A stretch of DNA of 64,000 nt from a virus. Shown in pieces: positions 183-64,000 of this stretch (its first letter is position 1; each line of letters starts with the position of its first letter). The stretch covers positions 3,494-67,493 of IMG/VR virus record IMGVR_UViG_3300031853_000033. One strand, given 5' to 3'. A program made the translations under genes and the position numbers. Under the pieces are notes generated by a model. It had not been told where the DNA came from, did no database searches, and saw only the letters and a program-made list of their open reading frames with translations.

Positions 183-185
183 AAA

Positions 186-41846: not shown

Positions 41847-42320
41847 TTACCTCAAAATGTTATTTTCCATGAAGGAAAAATAGTTGTTACCACCTACAAT
41901 TATATGGTCAAGTACAGGTAAATCGATAATTTTTCCGGCGTCAATAATTCTTTTTGTTGCGTTTATATCACATTCCGATGGGCTGCAATCGCCTGTTGGA
42001 TGGTTATGCACTATAGTTATATTTGTCGCCCCTATCATAAGCGACTTTTGAAGAATTTCCCGAACCGGGAAAGGACTGCAATTAGTCGACCCGTGCGACG
42101 CTTCGAAAAGCCCTATTAATTTACATTTTGTATTCAGGCATAAAATATAAACAAATTCATCCGAACATTCAGATAAGCCGACTTCATAAAGCATAAACCG
42201 CGCTATATCCTCCGGATTCGTAAACGCGCGGCGCCCGTCAATATTGTAAGTCGTGTTTGTTTCTTTTACATACGGCAAAAAACCGGATTCTAAAACTCCT
42301 TTATATTCCTTCACTTTCAT
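41847..42320 (-). CDS. RadC-like JAB-domain protein (DUF2466).
   Basis: JAB metalloprotease motif ITIVHNHPTGDCSPSECD...LDHIIVG. Confidence 0.75.
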   Translation of the reverse strand: MKVKEYKGVLESGFLPYVKETNTTYNIDGRRAFTNPEDIARFMLYEVGLSECSDEFVYILCLNTKCKLIGLFEASHGSTNCSPFPVREILQKSLMIGATNITIVHNHPTGDCSPSECDINATKRIIDAGKIIDLPVLDHIIVGGNNYFSFMENNILR

Positions 42321-43561: not shown

Positions 43562-44095
43562 TCATGCCACTACCTCATAAATGTTTCCGCTTTCGCTAAC
43601 ATAAAAACGCCCTTCCAGCATGATGTCCCGGCCGTATGCTTCAAAGTCGAAATAATTAATTATGTCTTTCGGAATATTGAGGCATCCGATTTCGATTGCA
43701 AATGCATATCCAACTGCGTGCTCTTCTGACTCCGATCCTTGCGTTGTGGTTATGTAAAGCACGTCGTTTAAGTTTTCTTTGATCTCTTCCGCCGTGTCAT
43801 AGCCGTAATAAATCAGCGCCGCCGCCGCTTCCTCGTTACCGTCCAGCACTTCCGCAAGTTTGTTCAAATCGTCCAGATTGTCATACTCTCCGATTTTCAG
43901 CCCGTCAATATCCGTCTCATAGTCAGTTATAAAATACTCTTCGTAATAATTGCCGTCTTCGTCCGGCTCCTCACTGATTCCGATCCTGTTTAATACGTCT
44001 TCAATCTCTTTATCAGTTGCCGGAAGCTCTAACCATTCTCCGATTAAATATCCTTCGTTGTACTTGCCTAAATTCGTTAAATAAATTCTAATCAT
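43562..44095 (-). CDS. ardA: Antirestriction protein ArdA.
   Basis: Start at internal ATG (RBS AAAGGAGAA). MIRIYLTNLGKYNEGYLIGEWLELP... matches the ArdA N-terminus (MKIYVANLGKYNEG). Acidic, 177 aa. Confidence 0.8.
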   Translation of the reverse strand: MIRIYLTNLGKYNEGYLIGEWLELPATDKEIEDVLNRIGISEEPDEDGNYYEEYFITDYETDIDGLKIGEYDNLDDLNKLAEVLDGNEEAAAALIYYGYDTAEEIKENLNDVLYITTTQGSESEEHAVGYAFAIEIGCLNIPKDIINYFDFEAYGRDIMLEGRFYVSESGNIYEVVA

Positions 44096-44229
44096 TGCTT
44101 TATTCTCCTTTTCTTTATTGATCATTGTTTTCGCTGCCTGGAATACTATCCTGCTTTCATCATCGGAACCGGCGCTAAGCACGTTCCCGATGGTTACTTG
44201 CTTTTATTGTATCCCTTTTTGATAGTATC

Positions 44230-47780: not shown

Positions 47781-48209
47781 TTATAATTTTCCGGTCGAAC
47801 CCACGCCGCCTCTGTCGGGGTTACCAAGCGTCACCACTTCATCGAATTCTACCTTCGGCTGATGTTTGATAATGCGGAACTGGCAGATCCTCTCATTTTT
47901 TGGAATCACCGTATCTTCCAGGGCATAAGCAAGAAACTGCCAAATGTCGTTATCACCCTTGTAAGATTCATCTATCACTCCCATACTGTTAGCGAGAATG
48001 ACATGATATTTCTTGTAGGTGGAAGACCTCGGAAGAACCAGTGCTTCGTATCCTTCGGGGAGTTCCATTGAAACTCCCAAGGATATCATCTTGTATTCGC
48101 CTTTCTTCAACTCGACCGTTTCGGCAGCGCGTAAATCCGTCCAGTTCCCTTGCGGAATCATCTCGATCCTGTCTATATCTGAATGGTATTTAACCTTAAT
48201 TGTCTTCAA
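47781..48209 (-). CDS. dut: dUTP diphosphatase.
   Basis: Conserved motifs including C-terminal RGGVGSTG and the VIDESYKG region. Confidence 0.85.
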
Positions 48210-48228: not shown

Positions 48229-48420
48229 TTATTTTTCGTCATCCTCAAGGCTACGTACCATATCACACATCTCGTCATCATCGGTACGGATGTACATATC
48301 TCCTTCCTTGTGAAGCGGAGACAAGGCAATGCTGATTGCGAGTGCTGTGACAAGGATGAGAACGATGGTTCCGGCGAAATTTAAAGGTGTGCTTAATATG
48401 AACTGTAATAATTCTGTCAT
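48229..48420 (-). CDS. Small membrane protein.
   Basis: 63 aa with one TM helix (AGTIVLILVTALAISIALS). Confidence 0.4.
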   Translation of the reverse strand: MTELLQFILSTPLNFAGTIVLILVTALAISIALSPLHKEGDMYIRTDDDEMCDMVRSLEDDEK

Positions 48421-49124
48421 TTGATTATCTCCTTTACGTACGGTAAATTTTTGAGGATCTCTACGAAATCATTCCATTCATCCAAACGATGTCCGGACCT
48501 TTCGTCAATTATCTTGACCACCACTTCGTAGGACATCATGATTGTGCGCTTCTGATTGTAGGATGAAGGAAGGAGCTGGATGAGCTGCCACCAATACGCT
48601 TTATCCTTCGTTTCCAGATATTTTTCTCTGTAAAAATTCAGCAACTCAATAAGGCACATCATCATCGTGTCTGATTTTAACTTTACAGAGGTCGATTCAA
48701 GTTCGATGGCGTAGCCGCCGGGATCACTTGCCGATACTCTTTTAATCGGCTCGAAATCGCCGAATAAATGTTCATAGCTGAAATCATCCAAAACAAACTC
48801 TTTCGCATGGATCTTGTGCATCGTACTGGTACTTACCTGTGCCTTGCCGATGGTGTAACGATCAGCTTCTTTCCACCAATATAGTGGTGCGGTCACATCC
48901 ATCCACACATTAATCATCCGCAGATATGTCCTGTGCGGTACACCGGCTTTGTACAGTTTCTTTGCCAGAGTCATGTCGTTTTCTCCGATGAAGAAATCCT
49001 GTTTCATGTTGGTGTAGTTTCTTCTTGTGAAGCTGTCGGACTTATTCCAGCTGTTCATCGGATTCCTGGAAGCCCTCACTGCATGTTCAAGTCCGTATAC
49101 ATCAATATTCTCTACCTTAATCAT
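48417..49124 (-). CDS. Hypothetical protein, possibly ThyX-like (FAD-dependent thymidylate synthase family).
   Basis: N-terminus (IKVENIDVYGLEHAVRASRNPMNS) resembles the ThyX start. No clear RHR-x7-S motif. Nucleotide-metabolism neighbourhood. Confidence 0.3.
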   Translation of the reverse strand: MIKVENIDVYGLEHAVRASRNPMNSWNKSDSFTRRNYTNMKQDFFIGENDMTLAKKLYKAGVPHRTYLRMINVWMDVTAPLYWWKEADRYTIGKAQVSTSTMHKIHAKEFVLDDFSYEHLFGDFEPIKRVSASDPGGYAIELESTSVKLKSDTMMMCLIELLNFYREKYLETKDKAYWWQLIQLLPSSYNQKRTIMMSYEVVVKIIDERSGHRLDEWNDFVEILKNLPYVKEIIK

Positions 49125-49461
49125 CTTTCCCTATCCTCTGTATCTCATGCTCGATATAAAACATTGCCTTGCCCAGATCTTCTGCTGTCTTCTCGGGATC
49201 TTTCCTTCCTGCACGGCAGATGTATTTAATTGCGTTTCCAAGATTGAAATTGAGGTTCTGGTCTTCAATAAAATCTATTACCTCAATCTTGCCGTAGTTG
49301 TAATGCGAAGGATGGTTTATCGCATCCTCATTAACTTTGATTTCTTCCATGTTGCTGTTCTCCCACTTCTTACATTCCCATTTATCGCTTATCATGAATC
49401 CCAGTCTGTCGCACAGACCGTTATCGTTGTAAACACAGGTGCTACATCCCTTGGCAATCAC
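49117..49461 (-). CDS. DUF3310-family phage protein.
   Basis: Motif INHPSHYNYGKIEVIDFIED typical of DUF3310. Confidence 0.5.
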   Translation of the reverse strand: MIAKGCSTCVYNDNGLCDRLGFMISDKWECKKWENSNMEEIKVNEDAINHPSHYNYGKIEVIDFIEDQNLNFNLGNAIKYICRAGRKDPEKTAEDLGKAMFYIEHEIQRIGKDD

Positions 49462-50014
49462 ATCCGCTCATCTCCTGTACATCCTTGTCATATGTGTAGG
49501 CAGGTTTGTCGGGAATCCACTCCCCGTTTGAATTTTTACGCCAGATTACTTGGTTCTCACTTCCGACCCATTGCCGGTCTGTATTCCGCTGTGCTTCGAT
49601 GTACTCTCCGTCTACAATGACATCCACAAAGCCGAGAATTTTATCATCCTTAATCTCATCGAATGTATAGCCGGTGTACATCCATACAGTCTTCGAAATA
49701 CCATACCGGAATCGAAAATCTCGGAGCAGATTGTAAATCGCAAGTCTGTTTCCGGGATACATCGGGTCTCCACCGCTGAGTGTCAAGCCGGAGCAGTAAT
49801 CGTTATCGATCAAGTCAAATAATTCTTTCTCGGCATTCTCGTCAAACAGCAGACCGTCATCAGGATTCCAGGTCACGGGATTCTGGCATCCTTTGCAGTG
49901 GTGATTGCAACCGGAAACCCAAAGGATTGCCCTTACTCCGTCACCGTTCAGAAGATTGTCCTTCTCTATGTTCTGATATTTCATCTTCGAAATCGTCACG
50001 CTCCCTTCCTGCAC
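49442..50014 (-). CDS. NrdG-like radical-SAM activating enzyme (anaerobic RNR activase / organic-radical activase family).
   Basis: GCNHHCKGC cluster (C-x3-C-x2-C) and LTLSGGDP motif. About 190 aa. No nrdD in the window. Confidence 0.65.
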   Translation of the reverse strand: MQEGSVTISKMKYQNIEKDNLLNGDGVRAILWVSGCNHHCKGCQNPVTWNPDDGLLFDENAEKELFDLIDNDYCSGLTLSGGDPMYPGNRLAIYNLLRDFRFRYGISKTVWMYTGYTFDEIKDDKILGFVDVIVDGEYIEAQRNTDRQWVGSENQVIWRKNSNGEWIPDKPAYTYDKDVQEMSGCDCQGM

Positions 50015-50098: not shown

Positions 50099-51084
50099 TC
50101 ATGTTCTTTTTCTCCTTGTATACTCTTCAAATGTCGGGCAACTCCAGAAAATAAAATTACTGCACCATCTCTGCAATCTCTTATAAACCGAATCGCAATG
50201 TTCTTTATCGTAAATCATTGGATACGGAGCAAATTTCAATTCCCGGCAAAGCTGAATCCGGTACAGATCCTGTTCAAGTGTCGTGTCGTAATTGCAGAGA
50301 ATGTATACCATAACTCTGCCCCGGTCTTTATTGAATCCTGTCTTCTCGGCAAATGCTCTCAGCTTCGGTTCGACAATATCTTTGTCCTGCCATCTGTCAA
50401 AAGCAAAATGGATCGAATCGAGCCGGATCTGTTTCAGCAGTTCCATGTTCTTGTCATTCACTAGCCGAATATCCAATCCCTGATTGAAATTGACTTTTGC
50501 TCCGCTGTCTGCCAATTGTTGAAGCAGTTCCATGTGTTGCGGACAGGCTAAGATGTTCGGATCGCAGAGGATGATGTTCTTCTGTCCTCTCCAAAATTCC
50601 GATAAGTCGGCAACCTTCCTCGACCGCTTACCTTCTTTACTCTCCACATGACAGAAACCGCATCCTCTCGGGCATCCTCTTGTCAGAAATCCGTAGGCCG
50701 TATCCTTTGTCAGTTCCGGATACAAATCGTAGTCGGGATAGATATGCTCTATCTCATCGGGAAGGTTCGTGTCTCGCTCGGCATGGTAGACCTCTTTTCC
50801 ATCTACCAATTCTATGCAATAACCGGACCCCCCCGAACGATTTCATCAGCATCAATGCAGTATTCGTAGTCAGGAGTGAAACTGAATACCTTGGACATAT
50901 ACACCTTGTCCATGTGACCGCTAAACATCGGATCATACCATTCGACCGAATCGCCTTGCTGTTTGTGCCATGCGGATATCTTCATCAGAGGAATGTTCGG
51001 GAAGTTATGAGAGTCTACGGAAATAAGACCGATCCTCATCTTCTTACGCATCCTTCTTTTCCATAACAGTCCACATACAAACAT
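50099..51084 (-). pseudogene. Radical-SAM enzyme with a Rossmann/B12-binding-like N-terminal domain, split into two ORFs by a frameshift at a G7 (C7 on +) homopolymer.
   Basis: ORF 50812..51084 is the N-terminal domain and ORF 50099..50809 the rSAM core (CPRGCGFC). One extra G at 50828-50834 fuses them into a ~326-aa protein. Confidence 0.6.
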
Positions 51085-53617: not shown

Positions 53618-54004
53618 TCACCCTTCACCTTCCTTCTGCATCGGGTTTCCACATTTCGGGCAGAAATTATATTCTTTGATAAAATCTATAAATTTACGCT
53701 TGTAATCCCACGGGACGAAAAAGCCACATTCGCTACAATGATAACCGTCACACATAGCAACATCATGCTCTCCGTATATCCACCGCCCCGTCTTGCGTTC
53801 GGGCTGTGCGGATGATACTTTTTTTACGCCAATCCTAAATCCTTTTTCAAAAGCCTCACGAATACTTGTATTAACATCGCATTCTTGCTTGAAATAATTA
53901 TTAATTACGATTTGCATCTTTTTTTCGCTTATTCCCATCCTGTCCCCCTTCCCACGGTTTCGGCAACGGCATCCAAGCAATAGGTTTTTCCTCATTGTAT
54001 CCAA
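53618..54004 (-). CDS. SAQPE-linker / zinc-ribbon protein (member of the paralogue array).
   Basis: VSSAQPERKTGRWIY followed by CSECG...CPKCG, paralogous to the C-terminus of ORF 54887..55354. Confidence 0.45.
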   Translation of the reverse strand: MDTMRKNLLLGCRCRNRGKGDRMGISEKKMQIVINNYFKQECDVNTSIREAFEKGFRIGVKKVSSAQPERKTGRWIYGEHDVAMCDGYHCSECGFFVPWDYKRKFIDFIKEYNFCPKCGNPMQKEGEG

Positions 54005-54278
54005 CCAAACTATATATCCCTTCGCCAGTATTTATAGCCCAATCTCCATCTTCATAAAAACCAACGCCCATATTGCCCTTAAACTGCAACAGGACATCTA
54101 AATTGTTGTCGGGCATTTTATCTTCTACAGAAATCCAATTCGGATGTGCCGTATCGGTGACCACTATAACTTCTCCGGGATCAGTGCCAAAATAGCCGCC
54201 ATTGTTGCGGATGATGATTGTGTCTTTACGGATTTCGTCAACGTATCCATGAACAAAACATCTATCGCCTATTTTCAT
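53901..54278 (-). CDS. DUF551-domain protein.
   Basis: KMPDNNLDVLL ... KPIAWMPLPKPWEG. Confidence 0.5.
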   Translation of the reverse strand: MKIGDRCFVHGYVDEIRKDTIIIRNNGGYFGTDPGEVIVVTDTAHPNWISVEDKMPDNNLDVLLQFKGNMGVGFYEDGDWAINTGEGIYSLVGYNEEKPIAWMPLPKPWEGGQDGNKRKKDANRN

Positions 54279-54727
54279 TTTTCTTCACCTCGATAACATT
54301 CTGGTAACGGCATCCATGCGATAACTTTATAATTCGGGAACGCATATTTCTTATCCCAATGCCACATACCATCATATGTACAAGCTGTCACGGTCATTCT
54401 TTCGCCATTGACCTCTACTGTAGCAAGGACATACTCTGACCTTTTTTTAGTCCCCAACTTCTTTAAAATTCCTGCGTCTTTTTCCTCTGGCATCCGCTCA
54501 CTACACGGTATCCACCGCTGTTCTGGCTGTGCGGAGGGCAACTGTTCAATCTTCTTTTCCGCAAGATATATCCCTTGCCTAACAAGGTCTGCCGCTTCTG
54601 TTGGGTCGATATCCCTTTGATATTCATACAACTCAATCAGCGCATCAATCGCCGCTTGTCTGCTGATACAGTCTGAACTGTTCGGAAATTCCGAATACCT
54701 CAACGCTTCGATAGCCGTATCACTCAT
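54275..54727 (-). CDS. Modular paralogue: ISRQAAIDAL-LPSAQPE N-module + DUF551 C-domain.
   Basis: ISRQAAIDALIELY...EQLPSAQPEQRWIPCSERMPEE...KVIAWMPLPECYRG. Confidence 0.55.
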   Translation of the reverse strand: MSDTAIEALRYSEFPNSSDCISRQAAIDALIELYEYQRDIDPTEAADLVRQGIYLAEKKIEQLPSAQPEQRWIPCSERMPEEKDAGILKKLGTKKRSEYVLATVEVNGERMTVTACTYDGMWHWDKKYAFPNYKVIAWMPLPECYRGEEK

Positions 54728-54890
54728 CGTCCTCGCCTCTCCTTTTTAGCCACTTTTTCAACTTCGTCTTCAATGATGGTTTATACTGCAAACATTCACC
54801 AGAATAATAAATGTTCCAAACTCCCGTCTTACATGGTTCCTTTTTATCGGAACGAAAATTGTATTTGCATCCCACACATGATTTTTTCAT
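54720..54890 (-). CDS. Small Cys-rich (zinc-finger-like) protein, 56 aa.
   Basis: Hand-translated MKKSCVGCKYNFRSDKKEPCKTGVWNIYYSGECLQYKPS... with RBS GAGAGGTG. ATGA overlap with the downstream gene. Absent from the six-frame track (below its length cut-off). Confidence 0.35.
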   Translation of the reverse strand: MKKSCVGCKYNFRSDKKEPCKTGVWNIYYSGECLQYKPSLKTKLKKWLKRRGEDDE

Positions 54891-55354
54891 TCCTGTTCAC
54901 CTCTCATATCTGCTCCGCAGTTCGGGCAGTAAGCAAATGCTTTTACCTTGCTGTCATGAATAAGATAATTACATTCAGAACAAGCACTTGTAACTGGGTA
55001 CTTTCCAATCCACTTCCCTTTCTTCCGCTCTGGCTGTGCGGATGGCAATTCCAACAATTCTCCTTCCATCACATCGCTATAGACGGCGTTTGCGCTCCAT
55101 GCCACATGACCTTCACAATTCTGTTCTTCTGCGAACGTCAATCTAAATGTATTTTTCCTCACGGCATCAATCGCCGCCCGTCTATCAATCAAATCTGAGT
55201 TGTTCGGAATTTCCGAACAGTTGTTTTTCGGCTGTGCGGACGGAAGCTTTTTTATTCCGTTAACGATTGTTTGTGCCAAACCTTCCCACTCTCCGCACTC
55301 AAATTCAACGATACTAATCGCCGCCTGTCTGCTCACCAAACTATCATCCATCAT
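54887..55354 (-). CDS. Modular paralogue: two SRQAAI...LPSAQP modules + C-terminal zinc ribbon.
   Basis: VSRQAAISIV...KKLPSAQPK and IDRRAAIDAV...LELPSAQPERKKGKWIG, then CSEC...CPNCG. Start placed at MMDDS after a KGE-encoding RBS. Confidence 0.5.
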   Translation of the reverse strand: MMDDSLVSRQAAISIVEFECGEWEGLAQTIVNGIKKLPSAQPKNNCSEIPNNSDLIDRRAAIDAVRKNTFRLTFAEEQNCEGHVAWSANAVYSDVMEGELLELPSAQPERKKGKWIGKYPVTSACSECNYLIHDSKVKAFAYCPNCGADMRGEQE

Positions 55355-56240
55355 TTCGCCTTTCTGCCCAATAGCAAAATCCATTGCATGTTACCAAGTC
55401 AGCATTAAGATAATCGCACCTGCCAAGTCCATAGCCCTTCATTTTTCCCGTAGTTTGAGTCCAGTGTTTGCAAGAATTGCAACGGATGATTTCGGGCTGA
55501 ACGGATGGCAACGCCTTAATGGCATCAAAAGCCGATTTTCCGGCATACTTCCATTCAAGAGCATCTAATGCCCCTTTTCTGCTTATTGTGTCCCCGTCTG
55601 TCTTGATTTCCGACTCAAGAGACATAAGCCTTGTTTCGGCATCCGCTTCCGTGTGTCCGTCCCAATGTGGCGCCCTCGGAAGATCAATACAGTCAAACAT
55701 ATCCCAATATTTATTTTCGTAGTGGTAAGTATAACTTCCCTCCGGCGTATCAATTCCAACAACGAACCATCCGCCACCAAAGCAGTATTCCCCATCTTCA
55801 TGTCTATACGATTTCCATGCCTTGCTCTTATACGCCTTTACAAGTGCGGCGAATAAAATCATCCTTTGTTCATAAAGCCCATTAAACGTGTGAAAACCGT
55901 CAGACACTTCTCCGATATCGTTAACGCCTGCAGCGGTACATATTGCTTTCCTTCTTGCCATTTCTGTATCAGTCATCATTTTGCCTTTCCCATATCCGCA
56001 AAAGAAATCTTTCGGTGTCTCAAAGGTTCCGTATCTGCTCAGACATTCGCATAAGTGATTGTTTTTCCAGTGTTCGCAAAACTCGCAATGGATGATTTCT
56101 GGCTGTGCGGACGGTAGATTCTCCAAATCGTACTTATATTTTTCAAATGCCTTATACCAATCGCCTGGTGTGTCAGCAATGCACCCGGCAAAGTTGTACA
56201 GAATATCAATAGCCGCCGCTCGACTTATCAGATCATCCAT
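55344..56240 (-). CDS. Modular paralogue: two SRxAAIDxL...LPS(A/V)QPE modules flanking a central Trp/Gly-rich domain.
   Basis: ISRAAAIDIL...ENLPSAQPEIIHC; central WKSYRHEDGEYCFGGGWFVVGIDTPEGSYTYHY; ISRKGALDALE...KALPSVQPEIIRC. Start at MDDLISR. Confidence 0.5.
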   Translation of the reverse strand: MDDLISRAAAIDILYNFAGCIADTPGDWYKAFEKYKYDLENLPSAQPEIIHCEFCEHWKNNHLCECLSRYGTFETPKDFFCGYGKGKMMTDTEMARRKAICTAAGVNDIGEVSDGFHTFNGLYEQRMILFAALVKAYKSKAWKSYRHEDGEYCFGGGWFVVGIDTPEGSYTYHYENKYWDMFDCIDLPRAPHWDGHTEADAETRLMSLESEIKTDGDTISRKGALDALEWKYAGKSAFDAIKALPSVQPEIIRCNSCKHWTQTTGKMKGYGLGRCDYLNADLVTCNGFCYWAERRNDG

Positions 56241-56595
56241 CCTGTTCACCCTCCTGATATGATTCTGGTAGTGGCATCCAAGCAACAACATTTCGTGTGT
56301 AATACCAAAAGCGTTTTCCCGAATCATACTGTCCACATCTATCAACATCTACAGTTTTGATTCCACCACTGTCATCTGTGACAAGAACTAATTCATCTAC
56401 ATCAGGCAATCTCTCACTGCACGGAATCCACTGCTGTTCCGGCTGTGCGGGTGGAAGTGCTTTTACCTGTCTGATTGCCCAATCCGTCATAGCATCAACT
56501 ATACAAGGATCGTCTTTTGCAGATTGAATGTTGCCGTCCCAGTACGCAACTCTCAGCGCATCAATCGCCGCCTGTCTGCTGATTAAATCACTCAT
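56233..56595 (-). CDS. Modular paralogue: ISRQAAIDAL-LPPAQPE + DUF551 C-domain.
   Basis: MSDLISRQAAIDALRVAY...VKALPPAQPEQQWIPCSERLPD...VVAWMPLPESYQEG. Confidence 0.55.
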   Translation of the reverse strand: MSDLISRQAAIDALRVAYWDGNIQSAKDDPCIVDAMTDWAIRQVKALPPAQPEQQWIPCSERLPDVDELVLVTDDSGGIKTVDVDRCGQYDSGKRFWYYTRNVVAWMPLPESYQEGEQDG

Positions 56596-56860
56596 CCTCC
56601 CGCCTTTCTGTTTCCACCTCATACCAATCAGGCAACATCTGGTTTCTTTTACAGTTTTTGCAAGGCATCATATAGGCATGTCCTAAGTGTATACAATTCT
56701 TACAGGTTAAATGCTGTTCGGGCTGGGTGGATGGCAATTCTTCAATCCTTTCTGCAAGCAATCTTTGGTCATCTTCACGGAATGCACCGCCAAAAAATTC
56801 TACAAAAAATTCTAAAGCCGTTTTTATTGCCAACCTTCTGTTTATCGTGTCATCCATCAT
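56588..56860 (-). CDS. Modular paralogue: N-module + zinc-ribbon C-terminus.
   Basis: MMDDTINRRLAIKTALEF...EELPSTQPEQHLTCKNCIHL...CKNCKRN. Confidence 0.45.
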   Translation of the reverse strand: MMDDTINRRLAIKTALEFFVEFFGGAFREDDQRLLAERIEELPSTQPEQHLTCKNCIHLGHAYMMPCKNCKRNQMLPDWYEVETERREDE

Positions 56861-57759
56861 TTCGCCTTTCTCTTCATGTATGCACCACAATATCCGCAAT
56901 AATTCATGTCATAGTCAAATGTTCTTCCGCACCAATTGCATTCATAAGGACTCTCTTCGTCATCTTTCCAATCTTGATGGAATATCCATTCCCCCGTATA
57001 ATCCAGGTCAAATCTTCTCAGCTTCTCCAACAAATCGGTCTTGACGTACAAGTCCGTACCCTTGATTTCGAACTCACCAAACATTCGCCGCTCTTGTCCT
57101 AGCTCTAAAATGAATTTATCCCCGGGCTTAAAATCGGTCTTTCCGACATGGATGTCGGGAACATCACCATTACTCATCCGCGACCTAATGTAATTTTTCC
57201 ACCATTCATCGCTATTACTCATTTCAGATTCGCCATCCTCTGACGGCTCTTTTGAGAATGAATTCGACTTTTCCTGCTCTGAAAGTGAAACTCGTTCTGA
57301 ATCGGTCTTGATTTTCTCAACAACATCCATCGCTTTTCGCAACAGGCAGTTTGGATTGCATTGCCCACAATGCTCCATCAGATAGCACCCATCACACAGT
57401 GTTATCATGTTGGTAAGCACTTCCTGTTTGTTTATTGATTCTTCATCGGTCTTTTTCGTGTGGTCACGAAATTGATCGGAATCGGCAATAACACTGTTAA
57501 TAAGTGACTCCGCAATAATCAGCCGTTCTGTGATTGTACGCTTCTTTAGATTAATTGCGATTCTATCTTCGTCATTTTCGGCTGTTTTGGTGCAGATAGA
57601 GCCGGTTTCGGGCACACTGCTTGCACACTGCTTGCTTAATGCGGATATGGTAATATCTAAGGCTTCATGGTCATAGCTGGTTAATGCACGATAATCCGCA
57701 AGAATCTCTCTGATCTCGTTAATGCGCTTAATCACCTGCTCATTCGTCATCCGCGTCAC
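56857..57759 (-). CDS. Hypothetical protein with Cys clusters and C-terminal zinc ribbon; contains a GDKF-ILELG domain also present in ORF 59006..59284.
   Basis: CDGCYLMEHCGQCNPNC ... CNWCGRTFDYDMNYCGYCG. GDKFILELGQ...FEIKG resembles GDKFVIEIGE...YKIKG at 59006..59284. Confidence 0.45.
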   Translation of the reverse strand: MTRMTNEQVIKRINEIREILADYRALTSYDHEALDITISALSKQCASSVPETGSICTKTAENDEDRIAINLKKRTITERLIIAESLINSVIADSDQFRDHTKKTDEESINKQEVLTNMITLCDGCYLMEHCGQCNPNCLLRKAMDVVEKIKTDSERVSLSEQEKSNSFSKEPSEDGESEMSNSDEWWKNYIRSRMSNGDVPDIHVGKTDFKPGDKFILELGQERRMFGEFEIKGTDLYVKTDLLEKLRRFDLDYTGEWIFHQDWKDDEESPYECNWCGRTFDYDMNYCGYCGAYMKRKAK

Positions 57760-58058
57760 CTCTCAAAATCAATCTTTTGCCCACAGTAACCGCATCTGTC
57801 CGTATCATTTACGAATTTGTGTAATGTCCCCACCCTACTGTTACCGTAAGCGATATAATTACCGCACGTAGGGCAATACAGCTTGTACAGATCTTTGCTG
57901 AATGTGTCTATGTCTTTCATTGGCTGTTGCGGTATTTCTTTGTTTAACGCTTCAATTGCCAGTTCCAGAGCATCAAACGCATCAAACGTTATCTGCGGCT
58001 CCCACGGTTCTGGCTCTTGCAGACGTTTCAAAATCGGGATAGCTTCCTCATTCGTCAT
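57756..58058 (-). CDS. Hypothetical zinc-ribbon protein.
   Basis: CPTCGNY ... CGYCGQK. ATGA overlap. Confidence 0.4.
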   Translation of the reverse strand: MTNEEAIPILKRLQEPEPWEPQITFDAFDALELAIEALNKEIPQQPMKDIDTFSKDLYKLYCPTCGNYIAYGNSRVGTLHKFVNDTDRCGYCGQKIDFER

Positions 58059-58260
58059 TCCGTATCACCCTCCTGTCTTTCGTCATGCTCTTTCAATGCT
58101 CCATAAATCAGCACATACGCCTCGCTGAACAGATCGAGTTTTCCATCCTCGGTCACTCCGGCATATCTTGCCAATATCGGTGCGACAAGGCTCCATGCTT
58201 CTGCTCCGCTCAAAAGTTGCACCTTCTTTCAGTTTGTTGTGTCTTCTCCGGAACATTCAA

Positions 58261-58452
58261 TTATTTCTTGTGGAATATCGTTCCGAGAATCCATAACACC
58301 ACCCATATGCCCACTGACAATTTCCATGAAAACGCAAAGCTGAATGCCCACGAAAGCAGCTTTACAATTCCGGCTGTTATGAAGAAACTGAGTGCATTTA
58401 TAAACAGTACGATCAATATATATGAAAACAGTACCATTCGTCCTCCCTTCAA
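58261..58452 (-). CDS. Small membrane protein.
   Basis: Two hydrophobic helices across 63 aa. Confidence 0.35.
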   Translation of the reverse strand: MKGGRMVLFSYILIVLFINALSFFITAGIVKLLSWAFSFAFSWKLSVGIWVVLWILGTIFHKK

Positions 58453-58509
58453 AACCTGGCTGTTACCTTCGCAAGGTCATTTAACCGATATCCGGCACCG
58501 AGCATTTAT

Positions 58510-58701
58510 TTATCCGTAAACCATCGACCGAATCTTCGAAGCCTTTCCGAGAACCTCGACTTCCACAAGACGATTTTCTCCGTAAGTGATTTTCGAAGAT
58601 TTGCTGTCAATCGACTCAATTCCTTTAATCCATTTCTTCCTGAGTATCGCCGGACTTCTGTCATCTTTATGCTCCAATGTGATGAATTCATCCTTCACTG
58701 C
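58510..58701 (-). CDS. Hypothetical small protein.
   Basis: Start placed at MAVKDEF with GGAGAAGAGG RBS. Overlaps the upstream stop by 14 nt. Confidence 0.3.
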   Translation of the reverse strand, partial: AVKDEFITLEHKDDRSPAILRKKWIKGIESIDSKSSKITYGENRLVEVEVLGKASKIRSMVYG

Positions 58702-58999
58702 CATCTTTTTCAAACCTCTTCTCCATGGGCTTTCCGCATCCCGGACAAAACCTTGTCTGATTCCTGTTTTTGTAACCGCATCTGTTACAGAAAAACATCT
58801 GCCGTCTGTAAGTGTCTGTCTTCTTCGTGAACCGAATCCAGGTGCCTGTTTTTTCACCGCTGTTCCAGTTATCGGTATAATAAATTTTGCAGACAGGTAT
58901 ACCGTTCTCCTGTTTCGCAGACAGCATTACTCTTCCGGTCTCGTTCAAGGTACTGAGCGGTACGGGTATCTCGATAATGCCGTAACCTTTGTCTGTCAA
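58688..58999 (-). CDS. Zinc-ribbon protein.
   Basis: C-terminal CNRCGYK...CPGCGKP. Confidence 0.4.
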   Translation of the reverse strand: MTDKGYGIIEIPVPLSTLNETGRVMLSAKQENGIPVCKIYYTDNWNSGEKTGTWIRFTKKTDTYRRQMFFCNRCGYKNRNQTRFCPGCGKPMEKRFEKDGSEG

Positions 59000-59005
59000 T
59001 CGCTG

Positions 59006-59284
59006 TCACCTCATTCTTCTGATTTCGTCAAAGGCTTCATCGACACAGTCAAGCATGTTCAGCCTGCCGGCATCGTAGCCGTTTTCCCATGCTTTGCGAA
59101 CAGCCTCTGCACTGGTCAAATTCGACTGTTTCATCAGTCTGCTGATACCGACATCATCGAAAACCAGAGTGTTAAACCCTTTAATTTTGTAAAGCAGTTT
59201 GCCGTCCTTACTGAGAATGATTTCTCCGATTTCGATTACGAATTTGTCACCTACTTTTATGTCACCTTTACTAGATGTATTCAC
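59006..59284 (-). CDS. Hypothetical protein carrying the GDKFVIEIG domain.
   Basis: Start moved to GTG 59284 (RBS AAGGAAGGTGA); the 5' part of the six-frame ORF is the alternate frame of the upstream gene. Confidence 0.35.
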   Translation of the reverse strand: MNTSSKGDIKVGDKFVIEIGEIILSKDGKLLYKIKGFNTLVFDDVGISRLMKQSNLTSAEAVRKAWENGYDAGRLNMLDCVDEAFDEIRRMR

Positions 59285-59945
59285 GAATATCACCTTCCTT
59301 TCCCCACTGATCGGCCATAGCTTCTGCAATCCCTGGAAACGTCTTACTTCTTGCTTTTGAACGCTCGTCCGGTGGAAGACCCCAACTGTAAGCGTGCCAA
59401 GGCGAATCAGTGCTGTTTCCTGTAATAACAGTTGTTGGCTCAATAATATTTGTTGGTCTTAATGGCTCAAGTCCTTTAAGCCAAAGACAAGTTTTCTTCT
59501 TTGCATCGTCTCCGAAGTAGTACGGATGTATAACGCAGTCGGGTTTCCTATATGCGGTATTCATGATACCAACAGGATTTTCCACAGCGATCCTGTCACA
59601 ATCAGCTAGGATGAAATGCATGAAGAACACAATTGCCTTATATCTGTCTTTGTATCTTTGCCTTGCTTTTTCTCCGTACTTTTCGATGTTGAACCAACTG
59701 TTGCCAGTTACGGTCAAATATGTGCAAGGTGGATGTGCGATAATCAGATCCCATTTCGAATCAATTCGTACCTTATGTCCTGTCATCGTTATGAATTCAC
59801 AATGACCGTTCAACAGCGGAAGACAATCACTTTTGATATGCCATTCCGGATGACCGCCTGACGGATTCAAGATGTCGCAGCTATACGCTTCGTGTCCTCT
59901 CTTCCGAAAGGCTTCGCATACTCTTTGTGATTCTTCACACGCCAC
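59271..59945 (-). CDS. Compact Dcm-fold-like protein (C5-pyrimidine methyltransferase-like motifs IV 'PPC' and VI 'ENPVG'; no FxGxG motif, no TRD), paralogue A.
   Basis: DLIIAHPPCTYLT, DRIAVENPVGIMNT. N-terminus (I)KVLVACEESQ positioned like motif I. Canonical ATG replaced by ATA (in-frame GTG follows). Confidence 0.45.
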   Translation of the reverse strand: MACEESQRVCEAFRKRGHEAYSCDILNPSGGHPEWHIKSDCLPLLNGHCEFITMTGHKVRIDSKWDLIIAHPPCTYLTVTGNSWFNIEKYGEKARQRYKDRYKAIVFFMHFILADCDRIAVENPVGIMNTAYRKPDCVIHPYYFGDDAKKKTCLWLKGLEPLRPTNIIEPTTVITGNSTDSPWHAYSWGLPPDERSKARSKTFPGIAEAMADQWGKEGDIREYI

Positions 59946-60016
59946 AAGTACTTTTATTTAAATTCACCCCCATTGCTCTGCCATTGCTTTTGCTATTCCT
60001 CCGAATGTCTTGCTTC

Positions 60017-60637
60017 TTACGCCGCCGTCTCTTGTATATGTATCTTCCCAAACTCTGACTTTCCCGAATGGAAGAACACCGTACAGTTCACGGTTGTTTG
60101 GTTTTTCTCCTCTGTAGGTTGGGATAAGTGGCGGCAATCCTTTAACCAAAAACACGTTTTCTTTGTCACAAAATTATCTTTATCTTCCGGACCATCGCTA
60201 AACATGTACGGGTCTATGCATTGATCGGGTTTTCGGTAACAAGTGTTCATAACTCCTACCGGGTTTTCGATTGCTATCCTGTCGCAATCAGCATTGACGC
60301 AATCCATAAAAAACCTCATACCCTCTATCCTGTTCAGTGTCCGTGCGTTAATCCAATTCAGAGGAGTCATCCTGATGCTGTGCTGCCTTGTAGCAACATT
60401 GCTGAGATACGTACAAGGTGGATGAGCAATGATTAAGTCCCATCTGTTTATGTGTATCTTTTCACCTGTTTGTAATCTCATCGTGCCACCGTTAAGTACC
60501 GCCCTGGCATCCATTAAAATGTGCCATTTCGGAACCCCCGTACATTTTTGAATGTCACAGGAGTAGGCTTCATGGCCTTTTTCACGGAATGCCTTACACA
60601 CTGTCTGCGACTCCTCGCAAGCTATCAGTACTTTCAT
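60017..60637 (-). CDS. Compact Dcm-fold-like protein, paralogue B; C-terminus out of frame (1-nt A-run indel near 60140).
   Basis: MKVLIACEESQTV..., DLIIAHPPCTYLS, DRIAIENPVGVMNT. The frame-shifted tail ...FGGIAKAMAEQWG is recovered in overlapping ORF 59964..60155 and matches paralogue A's C-terminus. Confidence 0.45.
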   Translation of the reverse strand: MKVLIACEESQTVCKAFREKGHEAYSCDIQKCTGVPKWHILMDARAVLNGGTMRLQTGEKIHINRWDLIIAHPPCTYLSNVATRQHSIRMTPLNWINARTLNRIEGMRFFMDCVNADCDRIAIENPVGVMNTCYRKPDQCIDPYMFSDGPEDKDNFVTKKTCFWLKDCRHLSQPTEEKNQTTVNCTVFFHSGKSEFGKIHIQETAA

Positions 60638-60825
60638 TAAGCCTTTTCTGTCATCCTTTCTGCTTTATCTTTTGTGAGTGAGAACCTCATCCTTACGGAC
60701 ATACAGCTTTTTAAGTCCTCTCTGATTTTATTTTTCAGATCCTCCGAAGCCATAAACCGCTCATACAGTATGCCCAACTTGTCTTTGCCCATCGGCTCTT
60801 CTTTCAAATCATTGCCAAGCAGCAT
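60637..60825 (-). CDS. Hypothetical small protein.
   Basis: 62-aa ORF. Confidence 0.3.
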   Translation of the reverse strand: MLLGNDLKEEPMGKDKLGILYERFMASEDLKNKIREDLKSCMSVRMRFSLTKDKAERMTEKA

Positions 60826-60827
60826 CC

Positions 60828-61148
60828 TTACTCCTCAATAATCGTTATCCCGTACCTTCTTGCCACTTCATGCTCGATCAAGCATCCTCTTGCGTCTTTC
60901 CAACCTCGGCAGAAAAATACGATGTCGGAAGTTGCCATCGCCACTAATGCCTTTGCGAGAAGCATGGCATTTGTACGTTCTGACTTGTCGGTTTTTAACT
61001 GGATGTAAGTATTGAAATTGCTGTCGATAAGCTCGATAGGTTCTTTCAGCAATCCGGTCAAAAAGTCTTTAGCATGTTCTCTCTCCCCGATAATTTCCTG
61101 ATCGGTCTTCCCCTTCATCGGCTGAGAAATAAAAACGTTTGTTGCCAT
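60828..61148 (-). CDS. Nucleoside 2-deoxyribosyltransferase-like / DUF4406-like protein (putative).
   Basis: VFISQPMKGK ... DIVFFCRGWKDARGCLIEHEVARRYGITII resembles the Rossmann-like deoxyribosyltransferase clan. Start at MATNVF. Confidence 0.35.
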   Translation of the reverse strand: MATNVFISQPMKGKTDQEIIGEREHAKDFLTGLLKEPIELIDSNFNTYIQLKTDKSERTNAMLLAKALVAMATSDIVFFCRGWKDARGCLIEHEVARRYGITIIEE

Positions 61149-61317
61149 ATTTGAACATGTCTCCTTTCGTTTATTCAAGTGATTAAACAGGGTAGGTAAA
61201 AAATATATGTGTTTTGTTTTTTATTCACAATACCGCCATGTGAAACCGCCTGCTGTTTTTAATTTTCCTCTTGCTCTGACTATTACATCTGTCAGAAACC
61301 GGCTTCACCGGTTAGCG

Positions 61318-61818
61318 TTATTCCTTTCCTGTACCAATTCTTATCTTGAATCTCTCATAAACTTCTTTCCCGCCATCATCCACCCAGTCCAGATCCACCT
61401 CGTCAAATTCCATCTCAAGTCCGTACTTCCGATGAAATTCTTCGTAACACCCTCTTACACCTACCTTGTCGATGTATTCCGTAGCTTCGTTGAATCTGTC
61501 GATAATCTTCTGGTATGATTTCTGTACGGTCTTCAAATTACCTACCGTCTTGTCCATCGCCACAAGCATTGTGAGGATGTTTCGGACGGACATAAATATT
61601 TCTGTTTCGTACAGCAGTTCCGAAGCGATTTGCGATGCTTTTTCACAGGCTTTGACAGCTTGTTCTTCTTCCATATCACGGAGCCATTTTTCCAAACTGT
61701 TATATCTTGTACCGTCATTCGTGACTATCGTCTTTGGAATGATTCTCTGTGATGAAGCAAAAGCTGCTTCGCCTTTCGCCATCAGTTTCTGCTGTCTTCT
61801 TCGCTCTGCCCTGTTCAT
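61318..61818 (-). CDS. Hypothetical protein.
   Basis: 166-aa ORF in operon. Confidence 0.4.
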   Translation of the reverse strand: MNRAERRRQQKLMAKGEAAFASSQRIIPKTIVTNDGTRYNSLEKWLRDMEEEQAVKACEKASQIASELLYETEIFMSVRNILTMLVAMDKTVGNLKTVQKSYQKIIDRFNEATEYIDKVGVRGCYEEFHRKYGLEMEFDEVDLDWVDDGGKEVYERFKIRIGTGKE

Positions 61819-62144
61819 GTCTTCACCTCCACGGGAGGCAGATTTCTCTTTTTGCGGAAGTAATTGAAGAGCGCCAATGATGCACTTCCTTCTTTCCGGA
61901 TCCGTGAATTGATCGGAGAATGCTCTTCGATATCATTGAGGTAGGCGAGGAGAATGTTGTTAAACAGTTCATCCTCCCCATATTTTTTGGAAAGTGCAAC
62001 CATGCTGTTCATGGCTTCTTTCCAGTAATCCTGTCTCTCTTCCGGAGTTGCTATTTGTTTACGCAGCTCCCAGCAATCCTTCATGAACTGACTTTCAATT
62101 TGTTTCCTCTGATCACTTATTTGCGACATCGTCTGCCACACCAC
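61815..62144 (-). CDS. Hypothetical protein.
   Basis: 109-aa ORF with ATGA overlap. Confidence 0.4.
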   Translation of the reverse strand: MVWQTMSQISDQRKQIESQFMKDCWELRKQIATPEERQDYWKEAMNSMVALSKKYGEDELFNNILLAYLNDIEEHSPINSRIRKEGSASLALFNYFRKKRNLPPVEVKT

Positions 62145-63069
62145 CTATGCTGACTATCGGCGTACTGTTGCCGGATACCACAGGAACATCTCCGTTCCAT
62201 TTATCGATCTTTGCTTTCTCAATCAGTTCCGGAGTAAGGCTGTCCGCAATCTTCCTGTTCGCATCGGCTTCTGCTTCGGCCTTGATTTTCTTCGCCTCTG
62301 CTTCGCCCTCAGCTTTGATTTTCGCCTGTTCCGCATTGATAGCAGCTGTCTCTTTGTCCTGCTCCGCTTTGATGAGAGCAACCTCTTTATCCTTCTGTGC
62401 TTGGACATTTGCAGTCTTTTGCTCAATCTGCGCCAGTTCCAGTTCCTGCTGTGCATTCACTTTTCTCTGAACACTCGCCCTGGTTTCGTCATCTGCTTCG
62501 ATGTTGATCAGGCTTACATTTTCAACTATGATTCCGTACGGCTCAAATTTCTCTTTGATGTATTCGGAAAGCGCGATGTTTAAATTTGCCCTCTCTTCTC
62601 CGAGAATTTCCGTGACCGGGTATTTTGCAGTGATTTCTTTCGTCCACGAAATGATATTTGGCTTTATAAAAGAATCTCTGACTTCCTTGCCCGACTGGCC
62701 TTTGAATCTTGTAAACAGATTCGTTACCTTTTCGGAGTCATACCGATATGTGAAGGTCAAATCTACGGTAAGTCCTTTGCCGTCACTGGTCGGTACTTCG
62801 AAACTGTCATCATCTTTTGAATCCCCTTCCGATCCTGCTGTGAGATATGACTGCTCGATACCGATTGAATACAGCGTTACTTCTTTTGTCGGACTCACCA
62901 TGTGCCAACCTTGAGTCAGAACCTCGTCAGATACGCCACCGTTCATCGAATAAACAATACCGACATATCCGGCAGGTACTTTCTCGAACATTGAAATTGC
63001 CGTAACAATCAGTGCAAAAATCACTACTCCTGTAAAAATCGCGCCTATCTTGCCTTTGCTATTCTCCAT
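62113..63069 (-). CDS. SPFH/band-7 (prohibitin/stomatin-like) membrane protein.
   Basis: N-terminal TM helix. SPFH core. Long Ala/Glu/Lys-rich coiled-coil C-terminus (AEQAKIKAEGEAEAKKIKAEAEADA). Confidence 0.8.
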   Translation of the reverse strand: MENSKGKIGAIFTGVVIFALIVTAISMFEKVPAGYVGIVYSMNGGVSDEVLTQGWHMVSPTKEVTLYSIGIEQSYLTAGSEGDSKDDDSFEVPTSDGKGLTVDLTFTYRYDSEKVTNLFTRFKGQSGKEVRDSFIKPNIISWTKEITAKYPVTEILGEERANLNIALSEYIKEKFEPYGIIVENVSLINIEADDETRASVQRKVNAQQELELAQIEQKTANVQAQKDKEVALIKAEQDKETAAINAEQAKIKAEGEAEAKKIKAEAEADANRKIADSLTPELIEKAKIDKWNGDVPVVSGNSTPIVSIGGVADDVANK

Positions 63070-63204
63070 CGTCTTCCTCCATTAATTTCTTGATATAATC
63101 CAAGAAGAATTCTATGTATTCTCCGATTCCTTTAAACAGCCATGAACTTAAAACCCATAGGATGAATCCTCCCAAGAAAATATAAAACAGTAAAATTGGA
63201 TTCA
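63061..63204 (-). CDS. Tiny single-TM membrane protein (47 aa), translationally coupled partner of the SPFH gene.
   Basis: Hand-translated MNPILLFYIFLGGFILWVLSSWLFKGIGEYIEFFLDYIKKLMEEDDGE with AGGAGGT RBS. Its stop overlaps the SPFH start. Absent from the six-frame track (below its length cut-off). Confidence 0.4.
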
Positions 63205-63215
63205 TGCGATACCTC

Positions 63216-64000
63216 CTAGTCGAATACAGGCTCTTCGTCTGCCATCGGGATGAAACCGTCAGATTCCGTATCCCATCCGTATATCTTGTTTTCGACCATG
63301 CTGTTCTTCAGCCTCTTCGTCTCTTTTTCGTACCACAGCGGTATGAAAATGTCCTGATTGCCGCCGTCACGATCCTTCGCTATCTCGATGACGTTTGTAG
63401 CCTGGAATATCGGATTATCTTCTCTCCATCCAAACATCTGCCTTGATAACCTCTGAAAGTCATTGTTGTTTCTGTGGATGATGAATGCATTATCGACAGC
63501 GTTTCCGATATCGGCAGTTCCGGAGATGTCATCCAGTCTTAGGAACCCCATTGCTTTTCTCGGATGAGCGACAAACATGATGTGGCAGTGCATTTCCATC
63601 GCCAATTCATGAAGCGACCATGTAAACTGTGTCTGCGCTTCGTATTTGTTGTCCGACAATCCAGATATATTGAATGCCATCAAGTTATCCAGGATGAGTA
63701 AATCCAGTTTGTCTTTCTCAATTTTCTTCCGGAATTCTTCTTTCAGTGCGACATAATCATTGCCGTACTTGTTGTTGTAGAGAAAGAATTTATCCGACAT
63801 CCACTTGGCAATCAGTTCCCTGTTCTTTTTACTGACGTTAAAATATCCTTCGTACTGCGTAGGCTCTACATGCGCCTTGCCGGCAGCTTGCAGATTCATC
63901 CACCTCATGAAGTTATCGGAAGACAATTCTCCGGAGAAAACACCGGCTTTATTATCATTCTGACAACACTCAAGAATTATTCCGGATACCCATGTTGACT
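63216..64000 (-). CDS. DnaB-like replicative helicase / primase-helicase RecA-fold C-terminal domain; partial, extends beyond the window end.
   Basis: Walker B-like LDLLILDNLMAF and MFVAHPRKAMG sensor-like motifs. The frame is open to position 64000. Confidence 0.55.
   Translation of the reverse strand, partial: STWVSGIILECCQNDNKAGVFSGELSSDNFMRWMNLQAAGKAHVEPTQYEGYFNVSKKNRELIAKWMSDKFFLYNNKYGNDYVALKEEFRKKIEKDKLDLLILDNLMAFNISGLSDNKYEAQTQFTWSLHELAMEMHCHIMFVAHPRKAMGFLRLDDISGTADIGNAVDNAFIIHRNNNDFQRLSRQMFGWREDNPIFQATNVIEIAKDRDGGNQDIFIPLWYEKETKRLKNSMVENKIYGWDTESDGFIPMADEEPVFD

Follow-up and report, generated by a model that had tools for sequence, protein, structure and literature searches.

The window analysed here is a stretch of viral DNA of 64,000 nucleotides (nt), covering positions 3,494 to 67,493 of IMG/VR virus record IMGVR_UViG_3300031853_000033, and the genes in question are two adjacent minus-strand genes, named copy A and copy B, whose products resemble the catalytic domain of C5-cytosine methyltransferases of the Dcm type. 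Four co-oriented minus-strand open reading frames (ORFs) were found from 61148 to 59271, namely a 106-aa gene, a 62-aa ORF, copy A and copy B. An earlier interpretation made from the letters and the ORF list (the sequence-only reading) had proposed that the pair and its neighbours form a module for pyrimidine modification. The features of the locus, with the gene models corrected in this work, were as follows.

61202..61230, minus strand: sigma-70-like promoter match TTGTGA-17-TATATT, within the 170 nt that precede the DUF4406-like gene
60828..61148, minus strand: DUF4406-like protein, 106 aa, with a nucleoside 2-deoxyribosyltransferase-type fold
60637..60825, minus strand: 62-aa ORF between the DUF4406-like gene and copy A, with no family match, absent in the related contig L100, where the flanking genes abut
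59964..60637, minus strand: copy A, a compact C5-methyltransferase-fold gene with ATG at 60637, split over two frames by a 1-nt deletion
60138..60146, minus strand: frameshift site in copy A, TGG TTA AAG GAT... in the window versus ...CTG AAG GGA TTG in relatives
59955..59971, minus strand: translation start region of copy B, GGGGG (59971..59967) 9 nt before ATA
59271..59957, minus strand: copy B, an intact 228-codon frame with ATA (59957..59955) right after an in-frame TAA

The proteins of A and B were 48% identical over about 225 aa (BLASTP E = 2e-63), and this identity over the whole length places their paralogy far beyond chance. The strings DLIIAHPPCTYL(S/T) and DRIA(I/V)ENPVG(V/I)MNT, quoted in the sequence-only reading as common to the two ORFs, were found in both. 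The paralogy it had claimed for 59271..59945 and 60017..60637 was therefore upheld, but neither ORF was a correct gene model, since A is frameshifted and the start of B had been misplaced; the size of about 210 aa was replaced by about 224-228 aa.

Residues 1-166 of copy A were read from 60637 to 60140, and its conserved C-terminus (GLPPL...RSKTFGGIAKAMAEQWG) was found after Lys166 in the -1 frame, from 60140 to 59964 (ORF 59964..60155), while the unrepaired ORF ran to a stop at 60017 through a 40-aa out-of-frame tail resembling nothing. When the two frames were joined after Lys166, a protein of 224 aa was obtained, with 96% identity at 100% coverage to an intact 225-aa relative (P0121). At the site itself a relative carried AAGGGATTG and the window AAGGATTG, so that one G was lost; compared in another register, the relative read CTGAAGGGATTG and the window TTAAAGGATTG, one G short in the GGG run. 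An A-site -1 slip from AAG to AAA would bring copy A back into frame, and programmed -1 frameshifting was considered and rejected, as no stable structure was present downstream of the site (z = 0.16) and the close relatives were intact; the lesion was therefore treated as a deletion. Low-level -1 slippage on A_AAG may take place in copy A. The lesion recurred in contig L001, but this contig does not differ from the window over 54378..64000 (100% identity) and is thus not independent evidence. Compared with L100, a related phage contig with 89% nt identity across A and the order DUF4406-like gene, intact A and B, the codons of A before the shift were identical in 131 cases, synonymous in 31 and nonsynonymous in 4, and those after the shift in 47, 8 and 3 cases, respectively. 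The 31 synonymous against 4 nonsynonymous differences indicated that any inactivation of A was recent. Copy A is disabled, or nearly so, by the frameshift in this phage.

For copy B, the N-terminus MKVLV given by the sequence-only reading was not encoded: the codons after the TAA were ATA AAA GTA CTT GTG (I-K-V-L-V-ACEESQ), where relatives have M-K-V-L-V, and position 59945, taken as the boundary of the ORF, was merely the first GTG of the frame. The TGA of the restored A frame (59966..59964) fell between the GGGGG and the ATA of B. The restored A frame was also the frame of B, with TGA ATT TAA and then ATA between them, and the junction 59964..59957 was identical in L100. Copy B of L100 likewise started TGAATTTAAATAAAAGTACTTGTA (ATA, L100 1157..1159) with the same upstream sequence, and its frame was open for 225 codons; over codons 1-42, 37 were identical to those of the window, 3 differed synonymously and 2 by conservative changes. 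Its fifth codon was GTA versus GTG in the window, so that an alternative start at the window GTG is not conserved. Of about 174 first codons aligned with residue 1 from 181 loci, 117 were ATG, 26 GTG, 5 TTG, 7 ATA and 2 ATT, and an upstream in-frame start was present in five of the nine ATA/ATT members. In two members from unrelated lineages, L143 (ATA) and L147 (ATT), AGGAGG stood exactly 9 nt before this codon, and the stretch from the preceding stop held no other start codon. Together with the window and L100, these two showed that weak non-canonical starts recur in the family. Judging from these comparisons, the ATA of B is probably a real start codon, from which B is probably translated at a low level, and the recurrence of ATA/ATT starts suggests that selection has favoured weak translation of an enzyme that may be genotoxic.

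Both proteins matched the profile of PHROG 757 ("DNA methyltransferase"), B with E = 1.3e-61 (residues 2-220 of B on positions 16-220 of 247) and A with E = 4.5e-44, the out-of-frame C-terminus of A matching too. No model of Pfam, NCBIfam or PADLOC matched A or B, and nothing meaningful was obtained from the PDB by sequence, in a single-sequence search and two profile searches. Word-index searches with A and B returned at least 8000 matches each, and an exhaustive profile search gave 5567 cluster representatives (50% identity) at E <= 1e-3, with 1074 of these at E <= 1e-30; nearly all were 200-240 aa long. Homologues were present in 215 cultured phage records, including phages of Cellulophaga, Vibrio, Flavobacterium and Arthrobacter, Pf-like phages of Pseudomonas and enterobacterial phages, among many. 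The depositors had labelled them "DNA methyltransferase", "DNA cytosine methyltransferase" or "hypothetical protein", and the RefSeq plasmid records mostly read "hypothetical protein", which was also the only name given by a cluster look-up. Prophages of many gut Clostridia genomes also carried the family, and the closest relatives in bacterial genomes were found in metagenome-assembled genomes of gut Clostridia, the best from Congzhengia sp. at 77%. The view that the arrangement and its proteins were undescribed could thus not be kept, as the family is already catalogued as PHROG 757 and many GenBank phage records name a DNA methyltransferase. Literature searches on phage C5-methyltransferases lacking a target-recognition domain or independent of S-adenosylmethionine (AdoMet), on the PHROG number and on non-specific phage cytosine methylases yielded no paper on the family and no biochemical characterisation. 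By these matches, A and B are two diverged members of a very large, catalogued phage and prophage family and are not orphans.

The structure of B was predicted with AlphaFold2 from a 47-sequence alignment, with a mean local confidence score (pLDDT) of 87.9 and a predicted template modelling score (pTM) of 0.86. The model has the predicted catalytic-domain fold of C5-cytosine DNA methyltransferases, and its top structural match was CmoX (PDB 8yf3); among viral models, Foldseek returned other phage proteins of 150-250 aa labelled cytosine methylase. A bridge to the canonical enzymes was provided by a 254-aa protein of L024 (4236..5000) that adjoins and precedes a family member: it passed the gathering score of PF00145 (26.1 versus 22 bits), and this protein (LELFAGTRS...SPDCSTFS...ENP) matched the hidden Markov model (HMM) of the family at E = 2e-6. 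When the profile of 92 family members was aligned by hhalign with that of M.HhaI and seven canonical phage Dcm proteins, E = 2e-4 was obtained, with motifs I-IV aligned, then ENP with ENV and KKK-T with RER-I; against M.HhaI alone, motif IV was the sole aligned motif. As the sequence-only reading had proposed, the Pro-Cys and ENx of the two proteins aligned with motifs IV and VI, and their N-termini took the position of motif I without its glycine-rich loop. The correspondences in this alignment, whose probability was only 45%, are given below, with copy B numbering for the family.

Motif I strand/loop: F18, G20 and G22 in M.HhaI; C7, E9 and Q11 in the family
Motif II: E40 in M.HhaI; D28 in the family
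Motif III: D60 in M.HhaI; D44 in the family, one position off
Motif IV: FPC (GFPCQAF) in M.HhaI; PPC (HPPCTYL) in the family
Motif VI: ENV (VFMENVKN) in Dcm; ENP (IAVENPVG) in the family, with Pro in place of Val
Motif VIII (QxRxR): R163-E164-R165-I166 in M.HhaI; K153-K154-K155-T156 in the family, in a low-confidence part of the alignment
Copy B, N-terminal to central part: ACEESQ (motif I position), SCD (II), D44 (III), HPPCTYL (IV), ENP (VI)
Copy B, C-terminal part: K154/T156 (motif VIII position), RSKTFPGIAEAMADQW (motif IX/X remnant)

The C-terminal LPPDERSKARSKTFPG-IAEAMADQW resembled motif IX (LxPRExARLQGFPD) followed immediately by the motif X helix, in a part of the alignment that is statistically weightless. 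Residues 162-193 alone, about 32 in number, separated strand 156-161 from this motif IX-like segment, which agreed with the earlier statement that no room is left for a normal target-recognition domain. Conservation was determined over 481 members. The residues C78, P76, E126, K154 and W159 were each 100% conserved, N127 99% and T156 98%; at the positions of the adenosine contacts, D28 reached 99%, and D44 was Asp in 91% and Asn in 7%. The residues that replace the glycine loop were themselves highly conserved (C7 98%, E8 99%, E9 93%, S10 99% and Q11 96%), and subfamilies with ACEFSG (L043) or FFEQSG (L089) at this segment graded towards the canonical FAG. In canonical enzymes the acidic residues of motifs II and III hold the adenosine of AdoMet, and GN(A/S)V of motif X lines its methionine end in M.HhaI. 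Read against this background, the conservation pattern shows strong selection on the machinery of covalent catalysis and on the adenosine contacts; at its methionine end, the AdoMet site has been not simply lost but rebuilt.

To describe the genomic context, ORFs were called and neighbours clustered in 80 IMG/VR loci and 12 contigs of close relatives. A family member was present in 86 loci. Tandem pairs were rejected as a feature of the family, being confined to the lineage of the window and L043, a 194-kb viral contig with two diverged members in tandem (4326..5660), one of them with the ACEFSG motif I. The relatives occurred as a single copy within replication and recombination modules, and the frequent neighbours were a DnaD/DnaB_2 replisome organiser (17/78 IMG/VR loci) and SSB (15/78), together with DEAD helicases, primase-helicases, ERCC4 nucleases and, in 7 loci, an ASCH protein; Dam-type (PF05869) and D12 adenine methylases were found near the family in 6 loci each. 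The domain-fusion search gave a sole informative fusion, P0332 (547 aa), with a PAPS-reductase domain N-terminal to the family domain, and in viral structural models the family domain was fused into giant helicase-type proteins. Both kinds of fusion point to a nucleic-acid substrate. In L101 (948..1151) and L002 (9779..12065), relatives of A were followed by a cluster of genes with anti-restriction functions, made up of a Lar-like restriction-alleviation gene and genes for dUTPase, an N4/N6 methylase and a Dam-type methylase. No conserved partner gene adjoined the family among the loci examined.

The gene at 60828..61148 was confirmed as DUF4406-like, as the sequence-only reading had it. It matched PHROG 355 ("nucleoside 2-deoxyribosyltransferase") at E = 3.4e-12, while its PF14359 score of 20.7 bits fell just below the cutoff of 22; many homologues at 40-60% identity carry PF14359, and one is named "DUF4406 domain-containing protein" by NCBI. 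Residue E92, within the conserved ARGCxIEH segment, was invariant, and the protein has the flavodoxin-like fold of nucleoside 2-deoxyribosyltransferases with a conserved, predicted catalytic Glu. Its supposed partnership with the pair was a different matter. A homologue lay near the family in 0/91 other loci, and the trio DUF4406-A-B was kept only in L100, which belongs to the same phage lineage (89% nt identity), so that its synteny is not independent evidence. The DUF4406-like gene is an unrelated neighbour whose adjacency to the pair is lineage-specific, shared by L100 only. Of the remaining proposed members, Dut, NrdG and the radical-SAM enzyme did lie downstream on the same strand, but the nucleotide-metabolism genes are 9-11 kb and more than 15 genes away; a shared operon was not borne out, nor was the identity of the ThyX-like ORF. 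The absence of DUF4406 from the 91 other loci and the occurrence of relatives singly in replication modules leave the dedicated module of pair, DUF4406 gene, Dut, "ThyX", NrdG and radical SAM unsupported. The context is that of a stand-alone DNA-directed enzyme of the replication module, not of a nucleotide-pool pathway. The promoter match at 61202..61230 marks a possible start of the transcript over these genes; it is a consensus match only, and such matches were no more numerous in the region than in shuffled controls.

Based on these results, A and B were interpreted, with moderate confidence, as minimal orphan C5-methyltransferase-fold enzymes that would act on DNA cytosine with little or no sequence specificity and in a protective role. 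Each protein is essentially a bare C5-cytosine-methyltransferase catalytic domain, in which the Rossmann core, the Pro-Cys nucleophile of motif IV, the Glu-Asn-(Pro) of motif VI, the acidic residues of motifs II/III and a basic residue at the presumed motif VIII position are kept; the target-recognition domain is lost, with about 32 residues in its place, the FxGxG loop is remodelled to Cys-Glu-Glu-Ser-Gln, and GN(A/S)V is absent. In the most likely mechanism, a cytosine would be flipped out of DNA, its C6 would be attacked by Cys78, and a one-carbon group would be passed to C5 from an adenosyl cofactor, most simply AdoMet. The sequence specificity would be very short or absent, and the protein would serve as an orphan protective methylase co-expressed with the replication genes, like the Dam-type methylases often found beside the family elsewhere. 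The results establish family membership, fold, motif conservation and genomic context; that DNA is the substrate, AdoMet the cofactor and anti-restriction the role is inferred.

Several observations weigh against this interpretation. PF00145 gave no match for A or B at E <= 1 and no family member reached its threshold; just 8/92 members touched the model at all, the best with E = 0.055, and the profile-profile probability of the family-Dcm alignment was 45% only. The motif I glycines are replaced (G20 by Glu9, G22 by Gln11), and no counterpart of the GN(A/S)V of motif X was found in the family, the probability of an alternative alignment being negligible; AdoMet binding is consequently only putative, and confidence was held at a moderate level for this reason and because two classical binding elements are missing. 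In this phage, each copy also has a lesion that affects its expression. In the window, neither CpG (1.08) nor GpC (1.05) was depleted, as they would become over time under heavy 5-methylcytosine (m5C); this is a weak test. Finally, phage C5-methyltransferase homologues with disrupted motifs VIII-X and an intact Cys, which are likened to the family by fold only, produced little or no m5C in E. coli (PMC8256090).

The main rival, a doubtful one, is that the fold and the covalent Cys chemistry are retained in something other than a plain AdoMet methyltransferase, with a remodelled pocket (Cys-Glu-Glu-Ser-Gln, His40, Lys205/Thr206 and no GNxV) that would bind another donor or no donor at all. Such an enzyme would leave a C5 adduct other than methyl, or it would catalyse exchange or deamination on DNA cytosine or uracil. 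The replacements of the glycine loop, 93-99% invariant, speak for a site that has taken on a new function and against one in decay; the acidic residues that bind adenosine are kept while the elements of the methionine end are lost; CmoX, the top structural match, uses carboxy-S-adenosylmethionine (Cx-SAM), which gives a precedent for alternative donors on this fold (PMC12783734), and degenerate phage C5-methyltransferase clades are reported to have made no detectable m5C in E. coli (PMC8256090). However, no gene for cofactor synthesis, CmoA-like or other, recurs beside the family, CmoX is of normal size (333 aa), and the frequent neighbours are ordinary orphan methylases. Extended to the whole family, PHROG 757 would be a widespread phage class with covalent Cys-C6 chemistry and a rebuilt cofactor pocket, performing a non-methyl or AdoMet-free, largely sequence-independent modification of DNA cytosine or uracil, with AUA/AUU starts keeping a genotoxic enzyme low; this proposal is likewise tentative and on balance unlikely, and if it is true, phages would have in it a new way of modifying their DNA globally. 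That both copies are decaying pseudogenes without current function in this phage is improbable. The frameshift in A removes the invariant C-terminal RSKTF...QW helix, with no stimulatory structure for programmed frameshifting, and the ATG of B is lost; but the frame of B is intact over 228 codons, the ATA and the upstream GGGGG are kept in the diverged L100 with only 3 synonymous and 2 conservative changes in codons 1-42, independent relatives use ATA/ATT behind a strong Shine-Dalgarno sequence, and the 31 synonymous versus 4 nonsynonymous differences between A and L100 make any inactivation a recent one.

A target other than bulk DNA was also considered. DNMT2, of the same fold, methylates RNA, and a comparable tRNA or rRNA cytosine-C5 methyltransferase, or an enzyme that depends on a partner subunit to choose its target, would fit the missing DNA-reading domain, which suits a structured-RNA or partner-guided target. 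DNMT2, however, retains all ten motifs and a recognition domain, no conserved partner gene stands beside the family, and the context consists of DNA replication genes and DNA methylases; although a prophage "DNA adenine methyltransferase" is known that methylates 16S rRNA only with a partner protein (PMC10810198), we regard this explanation as very unlikely. Scarcely more credence, indeed slightly less, was given to the model of the sequence-only reading, in which the pair, DUF4406, Dut, "ThyX", NrdG and the radical-SAM enzyme form one modified-pyrimidine pathway acting on free deoxycytidine mono- or triphosphate (dCMP/dCTP) or deoxyuridine monophosphate (dUMP). A free-nucleotide substrate needs no target-recognition domain, the trio DUF4406-A-B is retained in L100, and the genes all run in one direction, uninterrupted by any terminator match. 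Set against this, a DUF4406 homologue occurred within 5 kb in 0/91 other family loci, L100 is of the same lineage and not independent, Dut is just an occasional neighbour, the "ThyX-like" ORF is without Pfam or PDB support, the nucleotide genes lie 9-11 kb off behind an array of unrelated small genes, and the fusions are to helicase and PAPS-reductase domains, not to domains of nucleotide metabolism.

The rest of the window was that of a minus-strand phage genome, with structural and packaging genes followed by an early/replication region that includes a primase-helicase (63216..63926), a sliding-clamp homologue, Dut, ArdA, RadC and a sigma-like factor. The genes of this region named above, and others with recognisable products, were located as follows.

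50099..50809, minus strand: second radical-SAM protein (PHROG 9298), with the NrdG-like activase and a DUF3310 gene
49442..50014, minus strand: NrdG-like activase (Fer4_12 E = 4e-44)
48417..49124, minus strand: ORF formerly called ThyX-like, matching only PHROG 6721 (unknown function), E = 1.7e-60
47781..48209, minus strand: Dut
43562..44182, minus strand: ArdA (E = 2e-34)
41847..42320, minus strand: RadC-like JAB protein (E = 1e-34)
186..905, minus strand: metallo-beta-lactamase-fold protein

The assignment of 48417..49124 to ThyX was abandoned, as the ORF had no Pfam or PDB sequence match and no RHR motif; it contains TAPLYWWKEADRY, loosely reminiscent of the ThyX core. Sets of MazG, Fer4_12 and DUF3310 similar to that of the window occurred near family members in L010 and L011. 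The metallo-beta-lactamase-fold protein gave a weak match to Anti-Pycsar Apyc1, below threshold, and was called Apyc1 in the precomputed matches of L001. Six or seven small paralogous genes with an internal "LPSAQPE" linker, followed by DUF551, WDGH or zinc-ribbon C-termini, occupied 53618..57759 on the minus strand, and L001 diverged from the window exactly at this array (16 mismatches in 54305..54377), which suggests recombination among the repeats. L001 is ENA contig ERZ27256883 k141_3403312 (51.4 kb). Over the regions compared (1..2420 and 54299..64000), its positions 1-2420 corresponded to window 2420..1 and those from 5787 to the window from 64000 downward, so that both window ends lay about 3.4 kb apart; this indicated a circular or circularly permuted phage genome of about 67 kb, most of which the window covers. 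The piece missing from the window carried HU, SSB, ERCC4 and the N-terminal part of the primase-helicase. A low-GC island at 40001..42000 (GC 0.33 versus about 0.45 elsewhere) lay around a small-terminase-like gene and the stretch that directly follows an HNH endonuclease gene (39318..40007). Avoided tetranucleotides in the window were GGCC (observed/expected 0.37), CGCG (0.42) and GATC (0.51).

The A/B pair is not a new system. Its genes are new members of an existing PHROG, to which the window adds corrected gene models, a non-canonical start codon that recurs and the dismissal of a pathway hypothesis, and for this window the value lies in the corrected genes (frameshift, ATA start) and in taking away the attractive but unsupported pathway reading. 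Compared with canonical C5-methyltransferases (PF00145; M.HhaI, M.HaeIII and E. coli Dcm), the family has in common the Pro-Cys of motif IV, the Glu-Asn-x of motif VI, the acidic residue of motif II, the Asp of motif III and the order of the elements, and orphan genes of both kinds occur in phage early regions. The canonical proteins are 320-420 aa long whereas those of the family are about 225 aa; a recognition domain contrasts with about 32 residues, FxGxG with an invariant CEESQ and QxRxR with an apparent K-x-T, and the family is without GN(A/S)V and below the Pfam gathering score. In DNMT3 enzymes, too, the recognition region is very small, and DNA is read through oligomer interfaces. DNMT3A/3B with the inactive partner DNMT3L recall the phage pair in consisting of related proteins, those of the phage being encoded side by side; unlike the family, DNMT3A/B retain the glycine loop and motif X, and DNMT3L has lost its catalytic residues while both phage copies keep theirs. 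The analogy that underlies the module idea is with MilA/MilB-type hydroxymethyl-pyrimidine nucleotide pathways. MilA is a ThyA-fold enzyme, not a Dcm-fold one, and in the family studied here the Dcm-like gene was not regularly accompanied by a DUF4406 gene.

Among phage enzymes, CmoX is a DNA cytosine C5-carboxymethyltransferase with Cx-SAM as donor (PDB 8yf3; PMC12783734). The likeness lies in the phage origin, the same fold and the possibility of a donor other than AdoMet; however, CmoX has 333 aa, a recognition domain and a GC target and is encoded beside the Cx-SAM synthase CmoA and the ligase CmoY (PMC12783734), and no such partners stand beside the family. Clades III-VI of Burke et al. 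2021 (PMC8256090) also keep the catalytic Cys with motifs VIII-X lacking or disrupted, and are untested or m5C-inactive, the comparison being at the level of the fold only; they are encoded beside TET/JBP dioxygenases, whereas no TET gene was near the family. The small phage "cytosine methylases" (254 aa in L024; 150-250 aa in BFVD, from Lactococcus phage P087, Vibrio phage Vc1 and Escherichia phage Henu8) are likewise compact and without a normal recognition domain, but they keep a partial F-A-G motif I, have D-C or P-C in motif IV and are distant (E = 2e-6 to the family HMM). The family thus represents a clear structural variant of C5-methyltransferases that is modelled by no curated domain library, and it is very common, being represented by over 5,500 clusters (50% identity), in 215 cultured phages and in prophages of many gut Clostridia. 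If the altered cofactor site means a different chemistry, a widespread DNA modification has been overlooked. Should its members be cytosine methylases that do without a recognition domain, they would stand at C5 as the counterpart of M.EcoGII and other non-specific adenine methylases, of value both for the study of anti-restriction and as tools.

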